Positions 43,882-63,136 of a DNA stretch of 64,000 nt are shown in pieces. Position numbers and translations under genes: made by a program. How positions within the stretch are numbered: position 1 is the first letter of the stretch; the number at the start of each line of letters is the position of its first letter. The notes under the pieces are model-generated. The model saw nothing but the letters and a program-made list of their open reading frames with translations, made no database searches and was not told the origin of the DNA. The DNA lies in NCBI GenBank assembly GCA_963662465.1, contig OY759599.1, positions 5,600,001 to 5,664,000 on the forward strand. Direction: 5' to 3'. The DNA is from Desulfatiglandales bacterium (GTDB lineage: Bacteria > Desulfobacterota > DSM-4660 > Desulfatiglandales > Desulfatiglandaceae).

Positions 43882-44109
43882 TTTTAGGCTCCTCCTTAGA
43901 AAATAGGCGAATGCTCCCACAAGCGCTTAAATTTACCCATCGGCTGCCAATTCGCCTTCTGTTATTATTCTTTTTCCTTTATATAACATTTGTTTCATTT
44001 TATACTGAAAAAAGTAAATGATGGATCTTCAAATTTGGTTTTTTTGATGAACAAAGAAGCCCGAAGATAATTGCTCATCTCCGGGTTTCATAGACCGGAG
44101 GATATGCGT

Positions 44110-45423
44110 ATGAACAAAAGAAGAGGGAGAAACACCATAAGGGTTCTTGCACTGCTTTTTGCCTTTTCCTTTATGTTTTTCAGCCAGGCCGTTGCCGCTG
44201 AAAAAGCAGAGGATCTTCAGGTAAAAGGGCAGGTGAAAGCGGTTACAAACAAAGCCAAGACCGTATCTGTGAATGTCAAGGACAAAGGGGTCATGCTGTT
44301 TAAGTTTAACGACAGCACAAAGTTTATCAACTTTACCAAAACCAAGGAAATCAAATATCCCACGGCAGTGGTGGTTAAATATAAGGTTGAGGGGCCGAAC
44401 AATGTGGCCCTCTCCATCAAAAAGGCACTGATTTCTCTCCCCAATGGCGTGACGGAAATCAAGACCGACGACGTGGCCGCGCTGGTTGAAAAAGGGCCGG
44501 AAGCCGAGAACTACTTTCTGGTGGATGCCAGGCCGGCCACCGTCGCCTCCGCCGGACATATTCCCACGGCGGTTTCCATCCCCATTAATCTGCTGGAGAA
44601 AAAGGGCGCTGAGCTGCTGCCCCCGGACAAAAACAAGCTGCTCATTTTCTATTGCGGCGGCCCCACATGAGGCATGAGTCCTAAATCCGCCGGTCTGGCG
44701 AAAAAATGGGGCTACGAAAATGTCAAAGTGTATGTGCAGGGCATTCCCAACTGGAAAAAAACAGGACACCATACCGTTTCCACCGCTGACTACGTGAGAA
44801 CGGCCAACATCGTTTTAATCGACCTGAGGGCGCCCGCTGCCGTCACCGCAGGCCATATCCCCCGGGCCGTCAGCATCCCCGCCGGCAAGCTTGACGCAGC
44901 CAAAGATCAATTTCCAGAGTCCCTCACCGCACCCATTGTTTTTTATTCCGACAACATGGCGGAATCCATAAAGGCCGTGGAAACCGCTCGTGGATGGCGG
45001 TATAAGAATGTCACCCTGTTGGATTTCCCGGGCATTATTTCATGGAAAGAAAAGGGATACGATGTCAAGACGGGTCCCGCCGCCGAGGAAATCGTTTATG
45101 TGAGGAAGCTGGAACCCGGACAGATCAGCATTGCCAATTTTGAAGCGGCGTTAAAAACCCAGGCCATTACGGTCATTGATGTTCGTGGCCCCGCGGAGTA
45201 TGCCGCGGGACACTTCCCCGGCGCCATGAATATTTCCCTTGATGAACTGCCCACAAAGATAGGCGAAATCCCCCGGGATAAGTTTGTCATCGTCCATTGC
45301 AAGACCGGCGTCCGCGGGGAAATGGCCTATCTGCTCCTCAAGGAGAAGGGGTATGACGTGAAATATCTCAAGGCCGGTTGCCGGTGCAAATCGGATGGTA
45401 CCTATATGATCTGGGAAATGTAG
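44110..45423 (+). CDS. Exported multi-rhodanese selenoprotein (437 aa, Sec at codon 187)
   Basis: ORFs 44071..44670 and 44674..45423 are in one frame separated by a single TGA in IFYCGGPT*GMSPKSA; signal peptide; three rhodanese domains; SECIS hairpin follows. Confidence 0.88.
44668..44716 (+). promoter_or_regulatory. Bacterial SECIS element
   Basis: TGA..agtcc taaatc cgcc-ggtct-ggcg aaaaaatg gggct: apical stem with G-leading loop about 20 nt after UGA, plus lower stem. Confidence 0.78.
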
Positions 45424-45446
45424 CCCAACGAATCCAACCTTGATTT

Positions 45447-45480
45447 TCCCCGCCGCCTTTAAGGGACGGGGTTTTTTTTG
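45447..45480 (+). terminator. Rho-independent terminator
   Basis: ccccg..cggggttttttttg after the rhodanese gene. Confidence 0.75.
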
Positions 45481-45486
45481 AGCGGT

Positions 45487-45519
45487 TTCCGGTTCCCATG
45501 CCGGTGCGTGGGAACCGGA
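45487..45519. repeat. REP-like palindrome
   Basis: tccggttcccatgc-cggt-gcgtgggaaccgga. Confidence 0.65.
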
Positions 45520-45558
45520 CGAACGGCCCATCAGCATCACCATCTGAACTTTTTTGCC

Positions 45559-45587
45559 TTGACGGTTTAATTTGTAATAATTATAAA
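45559..45587 (+). promoter_or_regulatory. Putative sigma70 promoter of yeeE-like gene
   Basis: TTGACG-17 nt-TATAAA, then GGAGG RBS. Confidence 0.55.
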
Positions 45588-45637
45588 CCCATAGAACTCA
45601 ATCAGGACAAAGACCTTAACACTCTTGGAGGATTGCC

Positions 45638-46825
45638 ATGACTGAAGAAAAGGAAGAAAGCGTGATGGGGGGCATTCTGAAACGTTCCTACGCCATCGTA
45701 TTTTACGAAAACTGGCCCATCCGGCTGGGGGGCATCCTCATCGGCATCATGAGCGTGCTGACCTTTGCCTGGGCCAGGCCATGGGGCGTTGTGGGAGGCC
45801 TTAGAAACTGGGCGGACTGGGTTTTTCATCAAGTGGGGCTCTACGACAAGGCCCCCGTTTCTCCGCTTATTTCCACCAACTCGATCCTGACCCTGGGGCT
45901 CCTCTGGGGGGCCTTCGGTGCGGCGCTCCTGTCCAAGCAGTTCGCCATTCGCAAGGCCCCCGGTCGTGAATTGATCAAAGGGGTGGTGGGCGGCTGCTTC
46001 ATGGGCGTCGGTTCCGCCATGGCCGGCGGCTGCAACGTGGGCGGTTTCTATATCGCCAGCAGCGCCCTCTCCTTTGCGGGGCTTGCCATGCTGGTGGGCT
46101 TGATTGCCGGCGCTTACCTGGGGCTGCGATACCTTTACTGGGAAATGATGCACCTGCCCTCGTCACCGCCCAAAGGCGGCGGCGCCAAAAAAGTCAACCT
46201 CCTGTTCCTGGAACCCTATATCGGCGCCGTGGTTTTCCTGGGCGCCCTGGCAGCCACATGGTTCTATGCCCGGGAAGCCTATACACGGGTGGGAGGGCTG
46301 CTGTTGTGCGGCATCGCCTTCGGCATCATCATTCAGCGAACCCGGTTCTGTTTTGTCCGTTGCTTCCGAGATCCTTTCATGACCGGGGAAGGGGACATGG
46401 TCAAGGCCGTCGCCTTCAGCATAATCATCGGCGTCTTAGGCTTCGCGGCCCTCAAATGGACCGGCCTCAGGCCGGAAAATGCCTATGTAACCCCCACCTT
46501 CTGGTTCGGGAGTCTTGTGGGGGGCGTCATCTTCGGCTTCGGCATGCTCATCTCGGGCGGCTGTGGGTCCGGAAGCGTATGGCGAGCCGGAGAGGGACAC
46601 GTCAAACTCATGGTGGTAGTGATCTTTTTTGCAGCCACCAACTCCCTGTTCAAGACTTTGATCAATTCGTCGTCGGGTTTCAAGGCCCTCTTGGGAAAAC
46701 GGGCCTTCATGCCGGATGTCATGGGATACAAATGGGCGGTAATTGCCCTAATTGTCATTTTCCTGCTCTACGCCCTGATTGCCCAGTGGAATGAGGAAAC
46801 AGATAAATTCACCGTTGAAATGTGA
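45638..46825 (+). CDS. YeeE/YedE sulfur-compound (thiosulfate-type) transporter
   Basis: Multi-TM; AGGCNVG, QRTRFCF, GGCGSG conserved Cys motifs. Confidence 0.9.
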   Translation: MTEEKEESVMGGILKRSYAIVFYENWPIRLGGILIGIMSVLTFAWARPWGVVGGLRNWADWVFHQVGLYDKAPVSPLISTNSILTLGLLWGAFGAALLSKQFAIRKAPGRELIKGVVGGCFMGVGSAMAGGCNVGGFYIASSALSFAGLAMLVGLIAGAYLGLRYLYWEMMHLPSSPPKGGGAKKVNLLFLEPYIGAVVFLGALAATWFYAREAYTRVGGLLLCGIAFGIIIQRTRFCFVRCFRDPFMTGEGDMVKAVAFSIIIGVLGFAALKWTGLRPENAYVTPTFWFGSLVGGVIFGFGMLISGGCGSGSVWRAGEGHVKLMVVVIFFAATNSLFKTLINSSSGFKALLGKRAFMPDVMGYKWAVIALIVIFLLYALIAQWNEETDKFTVEM

Positions 46826-53349: not shown

Positions 53350-54204
53350 CTAAGAATTCGCTGACATTCGGCCCATGAAATAGGCGGCAACCAGGGTTCC
53401 CAAAACGGTGACCAGGGAGTAGGCAAATACCGCCGCGGGCGCTACGGTTCCCGCAAAATTGGCGGATGCCGCCACCAGGGCTGCCGGAGCATTGCGCACT
53501 GTGGTATTTAAAGCCAGAGCCTTTTTTTCCCCCTTATGGGGTCCTCCCATGAACCAGCCTATGACCAGACAGGTTGTAAAAAGGACAACACTGCCAACCG
53601 CGGCCCGCCAACCGAACAGCGCAAGGGTGTGGTAATGGGTCAGTATAATCAGGGAACAAGCCCCCAGAACCAACAAATTGTTCAGAACACGAAGGGGTCC
53701 GGCGATTTTCCGGCTGACAGCGGGCTGCCAATGGTTCAGCGCCAGCCCGGCTGAAAGGGGCAGGAGTTGACCCAGGGCCACGACCTTCATGATTTTCAGA
53801 TAATTTACATTAAGGAGCTCTCCTTCCGTAAATCCTGCCATCAGTAGCTTGAGCACAGCTGGAGAAATTACGGTGGAAAGGGCGGCCAGGAGGATCATGA
53901 GGCCGATGGATAGGGGAACATCGCCCTTGGCCAGGGCCGTGAAAGGAGGCCCCATGGGGGCCCCTGAAAAAACCACTCCTATCAGGAAACCCGCAGCCAC
54001 CAAGGGATCCGGCCTGAACAGGAGAAGAAGGCCAAAGGCCGCAAATGGCGCCAGCAGGAAATTCGTGACCAACCCCTTCCAAACGATTGCCCTTTTTTTT
54101 AGGGAATCCGTCAACTGGGTCGTGGTCACGGACGAGCCCATATGAAACATGAGGCATAAAAGCCAGATAAACGTAACCGTATCGGTAACCTGGTTCAACA
54201 TCAT
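53350..54204 (-). CDS. Bile acid:sodium symporter (BASS) family transporter
   Basis: Multi-TM, MFHMG, NFLLAP, AKGDVPLS, TVRNAPAA. Confidence 0.88.
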   Translation of the reverse strand: MMLNQVTDTVTFIWLLCLMFHMGSSVTTTQLTDSLKKRAIVWKGLVTNFLLAPFAAFGLLLLFRPDPLVAAGFLIGVVFSGAPMGPPFTALAKGDVPLSIGLMILLAALSTVISPAVLKLLMAGFTEGELLNVNYLKIMKVVALGQLLPLSAGLALNHWQPAVSRKIAGPLRVLNNLLVLGACSLIILTHYHTLALFGWRAAVGSVVLFTTCLVIGWFMGGPHKGEKKALALNTTVRNAPAALVAASANFAGTVAPAAVFAYSLVTVLGTLVAAYFMGRMSANS

Positions 54205-54218
54205 TCAAGCTGCTCCGG

Positions 54219-55175
54219 TTATGCCTGTTCCAGCCTGTCCACTGCCTTCTTGATTTTCAGAACGGTCACATCCGCCAGTTTCCGGAGGCTTTCCACCTCT
54301 TCAGCGGAATAGGCGTAAAACCCCTTGCCCGTCTTCATGCCCAAGTCTCCTTTTGCCACCATGTCTTCCAGGATTTTGGGTGGTTTGAATCCGTCTTCCC
54401 CGGTTTTATCATGAACATATCTAAAAAGGTTCAAAGAGGTGTCCAAACCCGCATAATCGGCCATTCGAATGGGGCCGATGGTGCAGAGACGCAGGGCAAA
54501 GCCATTCTGAATCACGGTGTCCACATCTTCCGCCGAACAGACGCCCTTTTCCACCAGGGTCAAGGCCGCCCGGAACATGGCGGCCTGAATATAGTTGTGA
54601 ATAAAAGCGGGGTGTTCTTTTAAAACCACGGTTCGTTTCCCGATGCCATCCAAAAGACTTAATGCCAGTTCAACCGTTTTCGGGGAAGTCTTCCTGCCGG
54701 GGACCACCTCCACCACCGGCATGAGGTGAGCCGGAATAAACCAGTGGGTCACAATGGCCCTTTCAGGGTATTTCATCTCGGAAGCAATTTCGTCAATGCT
54801 CATGGAACTGGTGTTGGACGCCACGACGGTTTCTTTGCCGCAAAGCTCGCCGCACCGCTTGAACACATCCCGCTTGATATTCAGATTTTCAGGTACCGAT
54901 TCGGTCACATAATGGGCACTGCCCATGACCTCCTCCCAGTCCAGGGTGAAATGGATGCGGGATACGGCTACATCCGCTTTTCCCTGGTCCAGTACGCCCT
55001 GTTCCACCATGAGGCGGATATTGGACTCAAGCCGCTTTCGAGCATTTGCAAGGCTTGCCTGCTGCGTATCCAGCGCCTTTATCTCATACCCACTGCCCGC
55101 AAATGCCAGGGCAATATCCGGCCCCATAATACCCATACCCACCACTGCTACTCGTTTAATGTCTTCAACCTGCAT
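54219..55175 (-). CDS. 3-hydroxyacyl-CoA dehydrogenase family protein
   Basis: VGMGIMG, ESVPENLNIK, ASNTSS, THWFIP..VVEVV, GMKTGKGFY. Confidence 0.9.
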   Translation of the reverse strand: MQVEDIKRVAVVGMGIMGPDIALAFAGSGYEIKALDTQQASLANARKRLESNIRLMVEQGVLDQGKADVAVSRIHFTLDWEEVMGSAHYVTESVPENLNIKRDVFKRCGELCGKETVVASNTSSMSIDEIASEMKYPERAIVTHWFIPAHLMPVVEVVPGRKTSPKTVELALSLLDGIGKRTVVLKEHPAFIHNYIQAAMFRAALTLVEKGVCSAEDVDTVIQNGFALRLCTIGPIRMADYAGLDTSLNLFRYVHDKTGEDGFKPPKILEDMVAKGDLGMKTGKGFYAYSAEEVESLRKLADVTVLKIKKAVDRLEQA

Positions 55176-55190
55176 GGCGATTCTCCTCCT

Positions 55191-56129
55191 CTATTTTCCC
55201 TTGTCCCGCTTCTCAAAAGCACGATTCACAATTCCCTGAAGTCTTTCCATGGTTTCTTTTGTCGGCGGCTTGAAATCCCTCAACTGATAAATTCTCCCCA
55301 GAAAACCGTACTTGGTTTCCCCCAACCGGTGGTAGGGCAACAGCTCATAACTGATCACATTTTCATGGGGAAGGATAAATGCCAGCACGGCCCGCACATG
55401 ACTTTCGCTATCGTTTATGCCCGGCATAATGGGACTGCGCGCCAGGAAACGCTTATCTTTAAACGTGCTATAGGCCCTTTCCAGATTCGCGAGGATCCGA
55501 CTATTGTCCACCCCCGTCCATTTTTGGTGCCGGACGGGATCCATGAGTTTAAGGTCGTGAAAGATGGTGTCCACATGGGGCAGGACCATTTCCATGGCCT
55601 TCCAGGGCACATTGCTTGCAGTCTCAATGGCGGTACTGAGCCCCCGGACACGGGCTTCCTGAAGGAGGGCCGCCGAAAACCGGGGCTGACACAAACAATC
55701 CCCGCCGCTTAGCGATAGACCCCCGCCGCTTTCCCGGTAGAAGGCATTGTCCTGTTCCACCTCCTCCAACACCTGTTCCACCGTCATCTCTTTCCCGAAT
55801 CGATAGAGAGCCATGGAAGGGCAGACGTCCACGCAAAGACCGCAGTTGGTGCAAAGATCCCAATTGATTTTCATCCGGTCGCTGGGAGAAAGGGTAAAAA
55901 TAGCGGATTCGGGGCAGATCTCCCTGCAGGCGCCGCAGGCGTCTTCCCCGATGCATTTATGGGGGTTATAGGCCAGTTCCGATTTGGGATGGATGCTCTC
56001 GGGATTACAGCACCACTTGCAGCGAAGGGAACATCCTTTCAGAAAAACCGTGGTGCGAATACCAGGCCCATCATGAAGACTGAAATGCTGAATGTTTAAG
56101 ACCGTGCCCGTTTGCTGGTTCTTCGCCAT
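55191..56129 (-). CDS. Glycyl-radical enzyme activating enzyme with ferredoxin insert
   Basis: HDGPGIRTTVFLKGCSLRCKWCCNPES, two extra Cys clusters, ELLPYHRLG. Confidence 0.95.
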   Translation of the reverse strand: MAKNQQTGTVLNIQHFSLHDGPGIRTTVFLKGCSLRCKWCCNPESIHPKSELAYNPHKCIGEDACGACREICPESAIFTLSPSDRMKINWDLCTNCGLCVDVCPSMALYRFGKEMTVEQVLEEVEQDNAFYRESGGGLSLSGGDCLCQPRFSAALLQEARVRGLSTAIETASNVPWKAMEMVLPHVDTIFHDLKLMDPVRHQKWTGVDNSRILANLERAYSTFKDKRFLARSPIMPGINDSESHVRAVLAFILPHENVISYELLPYHRLGETKYGFLGRIYQLRDFKPPTKETMERLQGIVNRAFEKRDKGK

Positions 56130-56144
56130 GAAGCAAATCCCCCT

Positions 56145-57224
56145 TTATTGTGAATCCCCAAGGGATATGCCCAGGGCCCGTGCTACCTGAACCAATTCAC
56201 GGCCGTGGGGTTGCACAAAAATCAGGTCAGGGGGTTGAAAGGCCGTCATGACGCCGATTCGACCGTCCTTCAGGGCGCGGACAGCGGCGGCGCCGTAGCC
56301 CACACCCAGCTGACGGTCCACGGCCGTGGGGTTGCCGCCGCGAATCAGTTGACCCAAAACCAGGGGAAAGGTCTCCTGAGCCATCCGTCTCTGCAATTCA
56401 AGGGCCACGCTTTCAGCCACCAACCCTGACTGGTCCATCACATGACTGCCCTCGTTTAACAGTGGGTTTTCACCTTTTGCGGGAGAGGCCCCTTCCGCCA
56501 CGACCACCATGGCCACGGGCCATCCCCGCCGCAATTTTTCCTGGAGCCGTGTGGCCACGGACCCCAGGTGGTAAGGAATTTCCGGAATCAGGATAGCATC
56601 GGCGGGAAGCGCCATGCCCCCTTGCAGGGCCAGCCAGCCGGCGTGGGTTCCCAGCACCTCCACCACGGCGATTCGACCCAGCGTTTCCGCCGCGGTTCGA
56701 GCCCGGTCGAGGGTTTCCACCACATAGGCAAGGGCACTGTTAAACCCGAAGGACAGGGTGGTTCCCGCCACATCATTTTCCACCGCCTTAGGCACACACA
56801 CCAGGGGAAGCCCTTTCCGAGCCAGTTTCCAGACCATACCCAGTTCTTTAAGCCCCAGCACGGAAATGATGCCGTCAATGCCTGCTGCTTCTACGTTTTG
56901 AAGCAGGGTATCGCTCAGATCTTTTTCCACGATCTGGTTGTCCGGGTCCACCACCTGGACCCGAAAGGGGTCGATGGGGTGCGTTGTGCTCAGAATACCC
57001 CTCGAAAGGACGGCAGGGTTCTCAATTTTCAGGGGGGAGAGAGAAACCATGCCCCCCTCTTCATATCGGTCCGGAAAAAGCAATCCGTCAAAGCCGTCGC
57101 GGATGCCCACCACCTCCCAGCCCAGTTCAAAGGCGGCCCGAACCACGCCCGTAAATACCGCGTTCAGGCCCGGTACATACCCTTCCCCCACATTCACCGC
57201 AATCCGCTTTATTTTCGAACCCAT
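56145..57224 (-). CDS. 6-phosphofructokinase-family protein with degenerate catalytic motifs
   Basis: PGLNAV, GIRDGFDGL, VPKAVEND, VEVLGTHAGWLAL, ILIPE, VVAEGA, LGQLIRGG. Confidence 0.85.
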   Translation of the reverse strand: MGSKIKRIAVNVGEGYVPGLNAVFTGVVRAAFELGWEVVGIRDGFDGLLFPDRYEEGGMVSLSPLKIENPAVLSRGILSTTHPIDPFRVQVVDPDNQIVEKDLSDTLLQNVEAAGIDGIISVLGLKELGMVWKLARKGLPLVCVPKAVENDVAGTTLSFGFNSALAYVVETLDRARTAAETLGRIAVVEVLGTHAGWLALQGGMALPADAILIPEIPYHLGSVATRLQEKLRRGWPVAMVVVAEGASPAKGENPLLNEGSHVMDQSGLVAESVALELQRRMAQETFPLVLGQLIRGGNPTAVDRQLGVGYGAAAVRALKDGRIGVMTAFQPPDLIFVQPHGRELVQVARALGISLGDSQ

Positions 57225-57260: not shown

Positions 57261-59756
57261 CTACATATCATATTCAGTGCGAGCAATGATCTCATTCTGA
57301 GTGGCCGGATCCAGCTCCGAAAAAAAGGCCGAGTATCCTGCGACCCGAACGATGAGGTTTCGGTATTTTTCCGGATCTTTCTGGGCCGCCCGCATGGTCT
57401 CGGCGGAAATGCAGTTCATCTGAATATGCCAGATCTTGAGATTATACCACCCCCGGATGAGGGAAACCAGTTTTTGAGTGCCCGCATGCCCCTGCAGGGG
57501 ACCGGGAGAAAGCTTGATATTTAAGAGAGGCGAACACCAGTGTTTGGAATCGTGTGGAACAAATTTGCTCACGGAGTTAAGGAGCGCCGTAGGCCCCATG
57601 GTGTCATATCCCTGTTGAGGACCTGCCCCCTCGGACAGGGGTTCTCCGGCCCTGCGTCCGTTGGGCGTGGCGCCGGTGGCCTGCCCCAGAACAATGTGGG
57701 TGGTGACGGGAAGCACCCGGAGTTCCCAGTTGCGGCCCACCACGTTGTTGGGATTATCGAGCTTTCCGATCTCGTCCACCATGAACCGGTTGATCCGGAC
57801 CATCATGAGGTCGGCCTCAGCATCGTTGTTTCCCCATTTGGGGGCGCTGATGCAGAACTGGCGAATCTTTTCCTTTCCTTCCCAGTTTTTCTCGACAGCC
57901 TCCAGAAGTTCGGCCATGGTGAACCGTTTTTCATCAAAGACCCGTCTTTTGATGGCCACCAGGGAATCGCACAGGGTGCCCGAACCGATCATGTCGATGT
58001 TGACCAGGGACACAAGGTCTTTGTTCGTAAATCCCACGCCGCTTCGCATGGCATCCTTCATTTCCCGCATGAACGGCTCATTGACGATGCTGCTGAGAGG
58101 CGACGCGATGTAGCGGGAGCGATAGCCTTCATAAAGAATATTACGATCAAAGACCATTTTCAGATGATAGCGCATCTGCCGGGCCCAGGCCTCCCAGACC
58201 GCTTCAAAGGTTTCGAATTGTTGAGGGTCTCCCGTCCTGAGCCCAACGGTTAGGTCCCCGAGCCTTCGAATTCTACCGTCATTGAGGGCCATCTCCAGGG
58301 ATGCAACCTGGTTATTGTAAGTACTGCCACAGTTGTACACTTCACTTCGAATCTGCCGGCATTCCATACATCCGTTCACGGTCCAGTCGTTGGCCAGGTG
58401 CAGTGGAACGCCCTTGGCCAGATACATGGGTATCACCACCTCGTCGTTAAGCAGCTTGGGATAACCCTGGCCCTCTTTGATGGTTTCGGCAATATCGTAG
58501 AAAAGCCTGTCCGGAGTGTTGGAGTGGATCCTGACCGCCAGATCGGGCATGGTCAGGGCCACGCCGCTTTTGGATTTCAGAAAAAGGTAGGTCAGTTCAT
58601 TGCTGGCATCGCGACCGTCGGTTGTCTGGCCTCCGAGGGTCACACACTCAAAATGCGCGAAACCGGACGTGGACCCCGCGATATGCCCCGCCAGGGGCAT
58701 GAAGATGTATTGGTACATCTTGAGGTTGAGCATGCGGATCAGATCCAAGGCCTCCTCGTCCGTAATGCGGCCCTCCTCCCGGTCTTTTTTGTAATAGGGG
58801 TACAGGTACTGGTCCATGCGCCCGTTGCCCACATTGCCGCCGATATTGAGCTCGATCCGGGTCCAGACCTGCAACCACCACTGACATTGAAGGGCCTCTC
58901 GAAAGGTACGGGCCGGATGCTCGGGTACTTGTCGGCAGATGGCGGCGATTTCCGTCCACTTGGCGATCACTTCAGGGTTTTCGGCCTTCTGAGCCAAAGC
59001 CTCGGCCTTGTGGGCGTATCGGTTTGCCCATGTGACAACCGCCTCACAGGTGAGCAGGCCGGCCTCGATGAAATCATTTTTTTCCGAACATCGGGGGTCC
59101 GTGGGCATGAGGGACGCGCGCATTCCCTCCAGTTCCTTTCGAATGCCCGCAAAGCCTTTCTTGAGAACACGCTCGTAGTCCAGGGTCCAGTTCTGGCTGG
59201 ACCTGCCGGTGCCGGTTTCCACATAAACGCCGGTGGGCTTTCCGTCTTTTGTCCATCCAAAATCATAGGCGGCGGGGGCGTTTGCCCGCAGCAGGCTCAT
59301 GAAGTTCACATCCAGGGCATGTTCCCGCCAATAGGGGATGATGTCCGATTCCATGACCGGCCAGTCGGAAGGGTCAATAAACGGTTCGGATGGAGCGGGG
59401 TCGTCCTTGACCATTCTTTTGAGCGATGCGTATCCTCCGCCATCGCACTCGGCAAAGGGGACCACGTAGCGACCCACCCATGGGGCAGGGGAACCCACAA
59501 TCTCCTCATCGGGATCGATGAAGACGGGAATGCGCTCCGCGAAGGCTTTGAGGAATTTGGCGTGGCGCAGGTTAATGGGCTGCCCTTCCGTTTCCCGGTA
59601 CACATCGGTCAGGATTTTTGTCCGTTCCACCAGCAGACGTATGGGCAGACTTCGAATGCGCTCCAGCAGTCGATCAAATCCCGGACTGGTCCTGACCCAG
59701 GTGGATTTTCCCTGTGCAATGGCTTTTTCCTGGGCGGTGAGTTCCCCAGTATCCAT
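57261..59756 (-). CDS. Glycyl radical enzyme (eliminase-type, IslA-related)
   Basis: 831 aa; Gly loop IVRVAGYSAFF, Cys loop VNGCMECR, GRMDQYLYPYY, ATPNGR. Confidence 0.95.
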   Translation of the reverse strand: MDTGELTAQEKAIAQGKSTWVRTSPGFDRLLERIRSLPIRLLVERTKILTDVYRETEGQPINLRHAKFLKAFAERIPVFIDPDEEIVGSPAPWVGRYVVPFAECDGGGYASLKRMVKDDPAPSEPFIDPSDWPVMESDIIPYWREHALDVNFMSLLRANAPAAYDFGWTKDGKPTGVYVETGTGRSSQNWTLDYERVLKKGFAGIRKELEGMRASLMPTDPRCSEKNDFIEAGLLTCEAVVTWANRYAHKAEALAQKAENPEVIAKWTEIAAICRQVPEHPARTFREALQCQWWLQVWTRIELNIGGNVGNGRMDQYLYPYYKKDREEGRITDEEALDLIRMLNLKMYQYIFMPLAGHIAGSTSGFAHFECVTLGGQTTDGRDASNELTYLFLKSKSGVALTMPDLAVRIHSNTPDRLFYDIAETIKEGQGYPKLLNDEVVIPMYLAKGVPLHLANDWTVNGCMECRQIRSEVYNCGSTYNNQVASLEMALNDGRIRRLGDLTVGLRTGDPQQFETFEAVWEAWARQMRYHLKMVFDRNILYEGYRSRYIASPLSSIVNEPFMREMKDAMRSGVGFTNKDLVSLVNIDMIGSGTLCDSLVAIKRRVFDEKRFTMAELLEAVEKNWEGKEKIRQFCISAPKWGNNDAEADLMMVRINRFMVDEIGKLDNPNNVVGRNWELRVLPVTTHIVLGQATGATPNGRRAGEPLSEGAGPQQGYDTMGPTALLNSVSKFVPHDSKHWCSPLLNIKLSPGPLQGHAGTQKLVSLIRGWYNLKIWHIQMNCISAETMRAAQKDPEKYRNLIVRVAGYSAFFSELDPATQNEIIARTEYDM

Positions 59757-59806: not shown

Positions 59807-60733
59807 CTATCCCTTTAGAAAATCAGGATTCGCAAACTCCGGGTCGGGATAAGTGTAAAAGCCTTTTCCAGTCTTGACCCCCAATTCTCCCTTATCAACC
59901 ATGGCCTTGAGGGCATCGGGCGGACGATCCCTTTCCTCCCCGGATTCCAGGTAGTAGCTCATCTCCACATTGTAGGTTACATCCAGGCCGTTAATATCCA
60001 TCTGACCAAAGGGTCCGACAGGCAATCCGTAAGCCACCATCCAGGCCCGGTCGATGTCCCGGAAATCCACAAACCCGTCAGCCCACATATACAGAACCTG
60101 TCGTTTAACGGACCGCCACACACGGTTAAAGCAGAAACCGTAAATCTCCTTTCTGACCGTAAGGGGAATGCAGCCGATGGCGGAAATCCATTGCTTTCCC
60201 GCTTCCAGGGTTTCGGGGCTCGTTTGACTACCCCCCATGATGTCCACCATGTTGATGCCCGTTACCGGCGTATAGAAATGCAGATTCAGGCATTTTTCGG
60301 GTCGTTTTGTGGCATCCTCGATCCTTGAAATGGGAATGGTGGAGCTGTTGCTGGCCAGGATGGCCCTGGAAGGGGCCAGGGCATCCATCTCTTTGAATAC
60401 CTTCCGCTTGAGTTCCAGATTTTCGGGCACCGCCTCGATGACCAGATCGGCATCCTTCAGGGCATCGGCCATGACGGAGGCGGTTTGTACTTTTGAAATA
60501 GCGCCGTTCCACTGTTCAATAGGGACCACAGGCCCTTTCTTGCGGGCGGTCATGATGCCTTCAAACTGCGCGACCGAGCGCTCAAAGGCCCCTTTCGTGT
60601 TGTCATAGACCGTGGCCTTGAAGTCAAAACAGGCGGCCTGAACGGCAATCTGGGCACCCAGAATGCCTGCGCCGATGATGGTTACCTGCAAGATTTGCAT
60701 GGTTTCAGGATAATTGAAAGTTTTTTCGTTCAT
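59807..60733 (-). CDS. 3-hydroxyacyl-CoA dehydrogenase family protein
   Basis: IGAGILG, EAVPENLELK, ASNSST, LHFY, GFCFNRVW, GVKTGKGFY. Confidence 0.9.
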   Translation of the reverse strand: MNEKTFNYPETMQILQVTIIGAGILGAQIAVQAACFDFKATVYDNTKGAFERSVAQFEGIMTARKKGPVVPIEQWNGAISKVQTASVMADALKDADLVIEAVPENLELKRKVFKEMDALAPSRAILASNSSTIPISRIEDATKRPEKCLNLHFYTPVTGINMVDIMGGSQTSPETLEAGKQWISAIGCIPLTVRKEIYGFCFNRVWRSVKRQVLYMWADGFVDFRDIDRAWMVAYGLPVGPFGQMDINGLDVTYNVEMSYYLESGEERDRPPDALKAMVDKGELGVKTGKGFYTYPDPEFANPDFLKG

Positions 60734-60842: not shown

Positions 60843-61079
60843 ATGAAACCAATCCGATACGATTGCCATGCTAGAAAGTGGATGAAAGACCGCCATGTTC
60901 ATGATGACGAAGTCAGGGTTGCCATTGAAAACCCCGACTTCATGGAGCAAAGCGTAAAAGGACGTATCAATGCCTTCAAATTCCTTAATAAAAGATATTT
61001 GAGAGTCACTTTTAAGAAGGAATTGGACCACGTATTGGTGATCACGGTAACCATAAGGAAAAAACCTTTCAAGGAGTAA
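60843..61079 (+). CDS. DUF4258-like (RelE-fold) putative toxin
   Basis: HARKWMKDR, AIENPD, LRVTF..LVITV; paired with DUF2283. Confidence 0.75.
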   Translation: MKPIRYDCHARKWMKDRHVHDDEVRVAIENPDFMEQSVKGRINAFKFLNKRYLRVTFKKELDHVLVITVTIRKKPFKE

Positions 61080-61083
61080 CTCG

Positions 61084-61302
61084 ATGAAAATCGAATACAG
61101 CAAAGGGATTGATGCCTTATATATTCGGCTTAGAGAAGTCCGTATTTCCGACTCCATGGACATAGAAGAAGGCGTAACAGTTGACCTGGATGAAAAAGGC
61201 CATATCGTCGGCATCGAAATCCTGGACGCAAGTGAAAAAATGGCTATCTCTGATCTTTTCAACATCCATATCGAAAACTTCCCACTTGAAAAGGTAGCCT
61301 GA
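61084..61302 (+). CDS. DUF2283 putative antitoxin
   Basis: MKIEY..DALYIRL, VDLDEKGHIVGIEILDAS. Confidence 0.9.
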   Translation: MKIEYSKGIDALYIRLREVRISDSMDIEEGVTVDLDEKGHIVGIEILDASEKMAISDLFNIHIENFPLEKVA

Positions 61303-61348: not shown

Positions 61349-63136
61349 CTAACGCCAGCGGGTACGCTCAAATTTCCCCGTTATGGCCGCATTCACCACA
61401 TCCCGGCGTGTGCCCAGCCAGTTTTTGGGGAAACCGATGCCTGACCCGAGGGTAGCCATCTTGAGGCTGTCGGTGGCATAGACCAGGGATTCAGCCACCT
61501 GGAAGTCCCGGTCGATCATACCGGGACAGCAGGAGTGAACTACCCGGGCCCCGCTTTTTTCCACGGCTTCCACCAATCCCGCCTTTTTGGCGGCGCTGTA
61601 CATGATATAGTCCGTATATAACCAGAGACGCTTTTTCACCTTCTGCCCATTCAGGAGTTTGGCCAGTTCGACGAATTCCTCAAGGGTCAAAAACGGGCAC
61701 CCCACCACCGCCACATCGATTTCACGATTCTCGGTCTGATGGATGCCGTGGAAAAGGGCGCGTAAATCCGCCTTGCCGATTTGAATGCGCTCTACATCAG
61801 CGGGAATTTCACCCCCGAAAGCATCCTCAAGGGTCTGGGCTTCGGGGGTAATGCCCACAATGTGGATCATGGGGTAGGTCAACGCCGGGGAGACGCAGGC
61901 ACAGAATGCCTTGGCCTGCTCGTTGGTCATCTCCTTGAGACCCGCCACTACCGGCACCCGGTCCACGGCCCGAAAGCCGATGGCGCCTCCCAGGGCAACA
62001 AAGTCGCCGATATCCAGCAATTCCGGAAGAACTTCGGGGGCCACCTCAAAGAGCATCTGTCCCTTCCGATTTTTCCAGAGATGCATGCCGTATTCGGGCA
62101 TGACGCCGGTAATAGCAGCATAGAGGACCATGTTGGCGGGGTCGCGATTCACCCTGGCCCCCAGCATGGTATTGGTGTAGGCCGCGTGGTTGCTTTCGCT
62201 GGTCACATGGCATTCCCCGAACCGTGCCACGCTCATGTGCATGTAAGGGATGCAGGTGGGGATCACATGAACCCCCATGGACTTCAGATTGTCATGAACC
62301 GGCTTCATGGCCTCATACACTTTTCGGGCAGGGGTCCGAACCTTGTAATGCCAGGGCATGCCAAGGTCGTCCACCAGTTCGTCCGCTATGAAGGTACTCT
62401 CCAACGTAGTGGGAACGGCCACTTTGGCGTCCAGTTTCGCAAATTCCTCATAAATGGGCCAGGCGCCGATGACCAAACCTTCAGTCTTCCAGTCGGAAAA
62501 TACATGGGCTGAACGAATTTTGGCCATTTTTGTGGAACCCATCCCCTGACCGAATTTCACCAGTCGCTCCATGGCCACCTGTTTGGCTTTGCCGCGCTTG
62601 CCCGCCAGCATCTCCTGTTCATGGGATGTCAGTTGGAGACAGTCTTTTTTCCAGCCCCTTGCCTTCTTTCTCTCCGGTGTTACCTCTTCCGCGGCCGCTT
62701 CCTTTGAACAAACCTCGACAATGGCCTCTCCGCCGGCTTCAGGCGCCGTAATCTTGACCCGGTCTCCTGTTTTTATGGTTTGGCAAGGATCCAGGTCAAA
62801 ACCGTCCACCGCCGGGATCCCAGCGTCCACGGCGCCCCCCACGCTGATGGGATGAACCGTCCGACAGATCAGGGCCTTGGGACCTTTGCCGGTGATCTTG
62901 CATTTGAAATACAGCCCCCAGGCGCCTCCCGTGGAAAAAATATCGGTATCATAAACAATGATCTTCCCAGCATAGCTCTGACCCATCAGAGGGTGGCCGT
63001 TCATACGGATCACGCCGTCGGATCCGATGGCATTAAAAAGATGACTCAATTTTTCGGTGGTGACCAGGGCCTCCCCTTCGACCTCGCCTTCAACGCGCGT
63101 GATACCATGAAGAACTTTGCTTGGTTTTTGTTCCAT
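61349..63136 (-). CDS. Aconitase X, fused swivel plus catalytic domains
   Basis: GEVEGEALVT, HPLMGQS.AGKI, LTSHEQEMLAGKRG, CIPY, ESNHAAYTNTMLGARVNR, HIVGITPEA, VGCP. Confidence 0.88.
   Translation of the reverse strand: MEQKPSKVLHGITRVEGEVEGEALVTTEKLSHLFNAIGSDGVIRMNGHPLMGQSYAGKIIVYDTDIFSTGGAWGLYFKCKITGKGPKALICRTVHPISVGGAVDAGIPAVDGFDLDPCQTIKTGDRVKITAPEAGGEAIVEVCSKEAAAEEVTPERKKARGWKKDCLQLTSHEQEMLAGKRGKAKQVAMERLVKFGQGMGSTKMAKIRSAHVFSDWKTEGLVIGAWPIYEEFAKLDAKVAVPTTLESTFIADELVDDLGMPWHYKVRTPARKVYEAMKPVHDNLKSMGVHVIPTCIPYMHMSVARFGECHVTSESNHAAYTNTMLGARVNRDPANMVLYAAITGVMPEYGMHLWKNRKGQMLFEVAPEVLPELLDIGDFVALGGAIGFRAVDRVPVVAGLKEMTNEQAKAFCACVSPALTYPMIHIVGITPEAQTLEDAFGGEIPADVERIQIGKADLRALFHGIHQTENREIDVAVVGCPFLTLEEFVELAKLLNGQKVKKRLWLYTDYIMYSAAKKAGLVEAVEKSGARVVHSCCPGMIDRDFQVAESLVYATDSLKMATLGSGIGFPKNWLGTRRDVVNAAITGKFERTRWR

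Follow-up and report, generated by a model that had tools for sequence, protein, structure and literature searches.

A conserved glycyl radical enzyme subfamily of the IslA/HpsG lineage with an altered pocket and a candidate role in hydroxy-acid catabolism

The window analyzed here, a stretch of 64,000 nucleotides from contig OY759599.1 of a Desulfatiglandales bacterium, encodes a glycyl radical enzyme (GRE) belonging to a real, conserved and uncharacterised subfamily related to the C-S lyases IslA, IseG and HpsG (Table 1). Its Cys-x-Glu pair and its lineage make eliminase-type chemistry very probable. The explanation that we favor, if tentatively, is a glycyl-radical 1,2-eliminase which would act on a hydroxy acid of at least four carbons, rather than on isethionate or DHPS, and expel an anionic group from it, with sulfite as the most likely one. 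We infer this chemistry and substrate from what was observed, namely the residues, their conservation, the phylogeny and the gene order.

Table 1. Features of the GRE locus in the window, with the number of clade loci carrying each (12 loci including the window, several truncated and some probably from the same organism).
Feature	Position	Strand	Remarks	Clade loci (of 12)
BASS/SBF-family Na+:anion symporter	53350..54204	minus		5
3-hydroxyacyl-CoA-dehydrogenase-fold protein, downstream	54219..55175	minus	best structure match FHMPC dehydrogenase	9
GRE activating enzyme (activase), radical SAM with ferredoxin-like insert	55191..56129	minus	TIGR02494, 330 bits (cut-off 174)	9 (with PFK-like)
PfkA-fold (PFK-like) protein, degenerate kinase motifs	56145..57224	minus	all PFK models below cut-off	9 (with activase)
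Glycyl radical enzyme (GRE), 831 aa	57261..59756	minus	Asn/Phe ('RQN') subfamily, IslA/HpsG lineage	
Second 3-hydroxyacyl-CoA-dehydrogenase-fold protein, upstream	59807..60733	minus	best structure match diketoreductase 4DYD	3
Aconitase X, swivel and catalytic domains fused	61349..63136	minus		4

Assignment to the GRE superfamily follows from the PF02901 and PF01228 domains, a PFL-like fold, a cognate radical-SAM activase and a glycyl radical site at Gly807, set by the motif RVAGY. When the protein is compared by phmmer with solved GREs, the best matches are IseG (651 bits, E 2e-194), HpsG (647 bits) and IslA (624 bits), at 38–41% identity, and the next GRE reaches 423 bits. The fold gives the same picture in an AlphaFold model built from 130 sequences (pLDDT 95.6), which was used instead of a model from 25 sequences that was poor at residues 685–717; the C-S lyases are matched with Z of 50.3–51.3, an rmsd of 1.5–1.7 Å over 790–814 aligned residues and a TM of 0.92–0.94, and other GREs with Z of at most 46.4 (CutC). 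The resemblance to isethionate sulfite-lyase put forward in the original prediction thus holds by sequence and, in the modelled structure compared with IslA and HpsG, by fold. It was also right to set aside pyruvate formate-lyase, as PFL matches at 99 bits, TIGR01255 gives 103 of 994 bits and the motif GCME holds a single Cys, and to set aside the fumarate-adding enzymes, since BSS matches at 268 bits vs. 624–651 bits for the C-S lyases. The gene sequence agrees with contigs from two runs of one sample with 0 differing letters, and the locus is also present in a related strain from a second study; together with the E value and the invariant residues described below, these matches mean that the gene is neither a chance similarity nor a sequencing error. 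The host genome (8.16 Mb) carries dsrA, and no other GRE or activase was found in it with these queries.

Pocket residues were mapped through the phmmer alignment to IslA (7KQ3), which is gap-free at the pocket sites, with numbering from PMC8473560. Five IslA residues are kept, R189 as R185, C468 as C463, E470 as E465, R678 as R680 and G805 as G807, so that both sulfonate-binding Arg are matched along with the Cys-x-Glu pair (C463-M-E465) of GRE 1,2-eliminases. Six are substituted: I192 by Q188, Q193 by N189, T312 by G307, W374 by F369, V680 by L682 and F682 by V684. Trp374, Val680, Phe682 and Thr312 of the IslA/IseG type are therefore all replaced, and the diagnostic sulfonate-binding Gln (IslA Q193) gives way to Asn189, with a Gln one residue earlier. 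The five motifs quoted earlier for this protein are present (residues 180–194, 365–378, 404–411, 461–467 and 678–687), and the IslA motifs given for comparison, with both Arg and Cys-x-Glu kept and Gln and Trp turned into Asn and Phe, agree with the alignment; four further changes (Ile192 to Gln, Thr312 to Gly, Val680 to Leu and Phe682 to Val) had been missed. All of these pocket residues are invariant in the clade wherever covered (50–53 sequences per position), in a set of 53 sequences of at least 450 aa that includes near-duplicates and cluster members and so is not independent. The Cys and Glu occur in 53 of 53 sequences, Asn189 in 52 of the 52 that cover it and R680 in 50 of 50, where it ends the strand 675–680 of the model. 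Such invariance points to selection for a different ligand rather than to decay, and both Arg side chains would face the cavity, judging from alignment and fold.

Mutants of IslA help to weigh these changes. Gln193 is essential and family-diagnostic; according to PMC8473560 the mutants Q193A, V680A, R189E and R678E are inactive, those of W374F, F682A and I192A retain activity, and Trp374 lies about 6 Å from isethionate and makes no contact with it. The Trp to Phe change therefore says little about the substrate; what is informative is the amide pair Q188/N189, along with the losses of bulk at G307 and V684. Since Thr to Gly and Phe to Val take away bulk and Ile to Gln adds polarity, a different and larger substrate is likely; this part of the original prediction survives, and Trp to Phe is dropped as a clue to it. 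R678 of IslA is described as entering the site from a β8 position unused by CutC and HypD (PMC8473560), and in the GRE comparisons of the cited papers only C-S lyases have an Arg at β8. HypD does carry an Arg at the 185 position, contacting hydroxyproline, a non-sulfonate, via water (PMC8473560), so that only R680, and not R185, can be called sulfonate-specific.

The protein search returned 15 clusters at 66–90% identity to the GRE, followed by a drop to 45%. At the 66–90% level the clade is rare, with 3 of 209 genomes of the class, 1 of 201 genomes of one alphaproteobacterial family and, among 401 sampled genomes of the phylum, none except its own. The closest loci come from Desulfobacteraceae and Desulfatiglandales records, and further members were assigned to Terriglobales and Bathyarchaeia bins; a plasmid search with the GRE gave a single match at 33.5% identity, and the ESM Atlas gave generic GRE clusters only. 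In the final tree (IQ-TREE with the LG+C20 mixture model, 36 rows chosen from larger sets) the query clade joins a PFK-linked sister clade (97/95), and an Asn/Phe clade unites the query with a Desulfitobacterium-type clade (99/99). The IslA/HpsG-type proxies form a clade of their own (100/100; proxy P0024 checked), apart from the query, and the Asn/Phe subfamily as a whole is nested inside the IslA/HpsG lineage (nodes 99/96 and 100/99), with the query clade on a long private branch of 0.9 changes per site. FastTree had the clade branching basally within the lineage, which would suggest an ancestral Asn/Phe state; this was overturned by IQ-TREE under both LG+G4 and LG+C20, and we treat the basal position as long-branch attraction.

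The three Asn/Phe clades have in common the motif R-x-x-[QHI]-N...[FH]...C-x-E...R, and by sequence the signature R-x-x-Q-N...F marks a separate subfamily of at least three clades rather than the lone remodelled isethionate sulfite-lyase first proposed. The HpsG model NF048011 is the best NCBIfam match of the query, yet at 819 bits (849 for P0007) it stays below the cut-off of 1000 bits, and the identity of 38–41% lies below the threshold of about 60–62% for the IslA/IseG cluster. Given the failed cut-off, the missing Gln and the well-supported separate placement, the GRE is not, by its sequence, a member of IslA, IseG or HpsG, although it may work like them. Sister clades without the defining Gln pass NF048011 at 1001–1154 bits, and databases probably mislabel them; sister-clade sequences may also be among those listed in the networks of Xing 2019 and Peck 2019.

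In the window the operon lies wholly on the minus strand and runs from aconitase X through a dehydrogenase to the GRE, and on to the PFK-like protein, the activase, another dehydrogenase and the BASS transporter. The downstream dehydrogenase is the most constant catabolic partner of the GRE. At the positions of the CoA-binding Lys56 and Asn221 of Hbd it has Val and Ala, and 120 of 120 homologs keep a Ser, His, Glu and Asn that we take to be its catalytic residues. Arg229 is equally conserved (120 of 120) and presumably binds a carboxylate, by comparison with L-gulonate dehydrogenase. Both dehydrogenases of the operon appear to be CoA-independent. The aconitase X scores 223 bits against a cut-off of 700 for the cis-3-hydroxyproline dehydratase model, and the known aconitase X enzymes dehydrate cis-3-hydroxyproline and mevalonate 5-phosphate, both free 3-hydroxy acids.

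A further link runs to the β-keto-acid cleavage enzyme (BKACE), which converts a β-keto acid and acetyl-CoA to an acyl-CoA and acetoacetate. The family of the downstream dehydrogenase adjoins BKACE in five other loci (L124, L125, L126, L128 and L133), and in locus L037 a single contig holds BKACE, a TRAP system and a 4Fe-4S protein upstream of aconitase X, dehydrogenase and GRE. Locus L129 repeats this order up to its contig end, in a genome with two GRE copies. Orthologs of BKACE occur in 2 of the 209 class genomes, and none was found in the window's own genome. The second carrier (G089, 83% complete) retains BKACE along with an aconitase X, the 4Fe-4S protein and the two dehydrogenases, but in place of the GRE it has a 2-hydroxyacyl-CoA-dehydratase-like pair with its ATPase, and no GRE of the query clade was found. 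Beside the clade loci examined we recognised no isethionate-type, DHPS-type or other sulfonate-specific gene, and no aldehyde dehydrogenase, Fe-ADH or microcompartment gene. Taken together the context suggests catabolism of a free hydroxy or oxo acid of at least four carbons rather than of a C2 or C3 sulfonate. Other searches of the surroundings gave less: the TauE search is uninformative (the family occurs in 13 of 14 controls), the short-chain dehydrogenases beside related GREs fall in no specific family, the promoter and terminator scan came out near shuffle level, and among the sequencing runs listed as carrying the locus none was of RNA.

By analogy with IslA, the activase, aided by the PFK-like protein, would install the radical on Gly807, the Cys463 thiyl would take a hydrogen from the carbinol carbon and Glu465 would deprotonate the hydroxyl group. 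The resulting ketyl radical could then expel the adjacent group, held by Arg185, Arg680 and the amides of Gln188 and Asn189, and return of the hydrogen would leave a ketone, with room for a longer chain provided by Gly307 and Val684. The acid would be imported by the transporter, and aconitase X and the two CoA-independent dehydrogenases would convert it to a free 3-oxo acid, which with acetyl-CoA would yield acetoacetate and an acyl-CoA through BKACE, an enzyme that operons of relatives encode and the operon of this genome does not. As purely hypothetical illustrations, 3-hydroxy-4-sulfobutanoate could give acetoacetate and sulfite, and a 5-hydroxy-6-sulfohexanoate a 5-oxo acid.

A free-acid substrate is favored by the lost CoA-binding residues of the dehydrogenase, by Arg229, by the adjacency to BKACE and by the L037 contig, with the occurrence of BKACE on the GRE contig in only 1 of the 12 loci and its absence among the hits in the own genome counting against this explanation. 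That a larger hydroxy-sulfonate loses sulfite, to which we would give somewhat less than an even chance, is favored by the three C-S lyases as best matches in sequence and structure, the β8 Arg R680, the IslA/HpsG lineage, the dsrA-positive host and reports on other proteins in which Asn binds a sulfonate. Against it stand the changes at both Q193 and V680, which are inactive when Ala in IslA, the lack of any recognised sulfonate-specific neighbor, and dsrA, which was found in 5 of 9 carrier genomes of the query and sister clades, the misses being draft genomes: G209 of the query clade, with completeness not given, and G350, G381 and G559 of the sister clade, of which G559 is 96% complete. The suggestion of an eliminase, possibly a C-S lyase, thus stands as regards the eliminase type of the IslA/HpsG lineage, and cleavage of a C-S bond is not established, given the missing sulfonate accessory genes, the neighbors for hydroxy and β-keto acids and the four carriers without detected dsrA.

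The same neighbors lend weight to radical 1,2-elimination with C-O cleavage, somewhat unlikely in our estimate, in which water or an oxyanion ester would leave. The enzyme would then be either a dehydratase that supplies BKACE with a 3-oxo acid from a vicinal-diol acid, or an eliminase acting on phosphate or sulfate esters, with the two Arg and two amides binding the carboxylate or the oxyanion ester. Every recognisable neighbor acts on sulfur-free hydroxy or oxo acids, Cys-x-Glu is common to all eliminases, and the module of G089, with its dehydratase-type radical system, fits elimination of water equally well; L089 and L090 are bordered by acetoacetate decarboxylase and 3-hydroxybutyrate-dehydrogenase-like genes, L005 by similar ORFs (Adc by resemblance only), and the carriers without detected dsrA point the same way. 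What weighs against C-O cleavage is the β8 Arg, which the cited papers, in their comparisons of GREs, show for C-S lyases alone, and a likeness in sequence and fold that is clearly greater to IslA, IseG and HpsG than to any of the C-O eliminases.

It seems quite unlikely that the enzyme is a ring-opening isomerase like YbiW, PflD and HplG, or that it carries out some other reaction than elimination on a cyclic anion, for example a sulfo- or phospho-sugar acid: isomerases too keep Cys-x-Glu and make methyl ketones, the pocket is probably roomier and more polar, and GRE pockets are, according to Dawson et al., hard to predict from sequence, but YbiW, PflD and HplG match at only 289–314 bits, the PFK-like gene gives no sugar clue, and the operon contains neither a recognised aldolase nor a recognised sugar transporter. 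Least probable is that the GRE splits isethionate or DHPS as a divergent sulfite-lyase, with Gln188 or Asn189 standing in for Gln193, since the kept Arg and Cys-x-Glu, the shifted Gln, the active W374F, F682A and I192A mutants and the best NCBIfam match are set against a score of 819 bits vs. 1000, an identity of 38–41% vs. the 62% threshold, six simultaneous pocket changes, a long private branch, and clade loci beside which no aldehyde dehydrogenase, Fe-ADH or microcompartment gene was recognised.

The PFK-like gene deserves separate treatment. Its product scores 255 of 431 bits with TIGR02483 and, compared with human PFKM, reads AVEND for SIDND and LGTH for MGRH, so that the motifs of a 6-phosphofructokinase are missing; the Arg position of MGRH lacks Arg in 10 of 10 orthologs, which are conserved at 50–79% identity despite the lost kinase motifs. 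The neighboring activase is below the cut-off of the HpsH model (389 vs. 430 bits). In locus L137 a PFK-like protein and a related activase (58%) lie beside an unrelated GRE, only 26–41% identical to the query over three matched pieces, so the gene belongs to activation, and we reject the idea that it hints at a sugar or sulfosugar as substrate.

Complex prediction with the activase and PFK-like pair of L004 (83% and 79% identical to the window's proteins) gave a score of 0.70, with 0.00 for the best of 3 controls; of the solved complexes 116 of 157 reach the mark for this score, against 2 of 215 mismatched pairs, counts that are only approximate with own alignments. Runs agreed in at least 75% of contacts with a partner pLDDT of at least 86, and the predicted interface on the activase takes in residues 34–36 (the radical-SAM cysteine loop) and 75–92 (the ferredoxin insert), which supports, at the level of a model, binding of the PFK-like protein to the activase. 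At 56201–56212 the window has an assembly defect that drops 11 codons, for interface residues, from the PFK-like gene; in contigs from three runs this place spans 45 letters, compared with 12 in the window, so that the organism has an intact gene and decay of the operon is ruled out as the cause of the deletion.

A joint reading, possible though somewhat less likely than not, would combine radical desulfonation or deoxygenation of C4–C6 hydroxy acids by the GRE, a substrate class that is not yet known for such enzymes, feeding β-keto-acid cleavage, with a two-component activase containing a dead PFK. In this combination the dead PFK would sit over the radical-SAM cluster loop and ferredoxin insert, stabilising or gating activation, and activase and partner would move as a module between unrelated GREs. 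If true, this would mean that an anaerobic route, and perhaps also a natural organosulfonate, has so far gone unrecognised. With the clade, its invariant pocket and a candidate pathway defined, a short substrate screen could test it, and, if the activases need the PFK-like partner, co-expression may rescue activation in this GRE group.

We found no description of the query clade or of a PFK-like activase partner in a mostly subscription-free literature, and no candidate-substrate terms among 40 of 369 papers, from 2024 onward only. The papers cited are PMC8473560, PMC13450708, PMC6453916, PMC6386719, PMC10470551, PMC11961710, PMC8184944 and PMC12814064. Radical C-S lyases are known with only two substrates, isethionate and DHPS, activases that are insoluble or of low yield are named as a bottleneck of the field, and a 2026 review reports whole GRE clades without experimental validation; that review does not mention a PFK-fold activase partner.

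Compared with IslA of Bilophila wadsworthia (7KQ3) and IseG of Desulfovibrio vulgaris (5YMR), the enzyme has the same fold, glycyl radical, Cys-x-Glu pair, both Arg and a ferredoxin-type activase, and it differs in its 38–41% identity, six pocket changes, separate clade, other accessory genes and PFK-like activase partner. HpsG of B. wadsworthia (6LON, NF048011) has the same catalytic set and both Arg (R183 and R672) and seems the closest chemical model, as it turns a longer substrate into a methyl ketone; against this stand 40% identity, 819 of 1000 bits, the change of Gln187 to Asn and an activase at 389 of 430 bits for HpsH. For the remaining genes the nearest parallel is the lower phloroglucinol pathway of Clostridium scatologenes (TfD with TAL/BKACE), where a 3-hydroxyacyl-CoA-dehydrogenase homolog without Lys56 and Asn221 acts on a free 3-hydroxy acid and BKACE cleaves the product (PMC10470551). 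That CoA-less dehydrogenase is likewise paired with BKACE, but no GRE or aconitase X is described there in the available parts of the paper, and the likeness is a pathway analogy rather than shown orthology. Finally, the multi-subunit GREs HPAD, BSS and MASS are a precedent for accessory proteins, which the GRE itself has there as small Fe or Fe-S subunits, unlike the PFK-fold partner of the activase described here.

In the window, the PFK-like gene of the GRE operon carries an assembly defect: the affected interval holds 12 letters, as opposed to 45 in contigs from three sequencing runs (two studies), and the 45-letter version gives back 11 conserved codons that are absent from the gene as it stands. 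Three copies in relatives appear damaged as assembled, whether by real lesions or by assembly error, with frameshifts in the GRE of locus L039 and the PFK-like gene of L005, and, in L003, a GRE that is cut by a transposase-like gene lying upstream and also has internal stops.

Features by position
Feature	Location	Strand	Remark
PFK-like gene defect	window 56201-56212		
DUF4258 + DUF2283 pair	window 60843-61302	+	inserted between aconitase X and upstream dehydrogenase, on the opposite strand to them
Rhodanese-like gene, then YeeE/YedE sulfur transporter (PF04143)	window 44071-46825	+	rhodanese call by inspection only
GRE	L003:9114-11446		
GRE	L039:338-2814		
PFK-like gene	L005:7782-8967		
BKACE locus L124	G089:C166:2000-21999		
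Distant GRE locus L137	G062:C4:100000-119999		

The DUF4258 and DUF2283 pair, which we take to be toxin-antitoxin-like, has a GC content of 42% against 54% for the cassette and is absent from the clade relatives L037 and L129; one contig of a related strain covers the interval without a joint. Elsewhere, an in-frame TGA near 44670 splits the rhodanese-like protein and, by inspection only, is possibly a selenocysteine codon. This gene and the transporter gene after it showed no linkage to the GRE operon in relatives.

At L137, a distant, frameshifted GRE is followed by PFK-like, activase, ferredoxin-like, PFK-like and ferredoxin-like genes, which points to an activation module that travels from one GRE to another, unrelated one. 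L124 encodes a BKACE (90% to that of L037), both dehydrogenases, a split aconitase X, a 4Fe-4S protein and a TRAP importer, and the GRE's place is taken by a 2-hydroxyacyl-CoA-dehydratase-like pair, a BcrAD-type ATPase and a CooC-like gene, possibly a non-orthologous replacement. A recurrent module in L124, L126 and L128 pairs BKACE and a dehydrogenase of the same CoA-independent family with a pyruvate-carboxylase-B-like gene; in L128 it also has biotin carboxylase and carrier.

P0026, P0051, P0060 and P0062 are without the sulfonate-binding Gln, yet pass the HpsG model NF048011 at 1001-1164 bits, so the model probably over-annotates. The clade of L061, L063, L065, L069-L071, L073, L084 and the P0062 group keeps both Arg and Trp with Ala at the Gln position, and is another uncharacterised clade of the IslA/HpsG lineage. 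In yet another group, made up of P0022, P0039, P0040 and P0067, the second Arg is gone.
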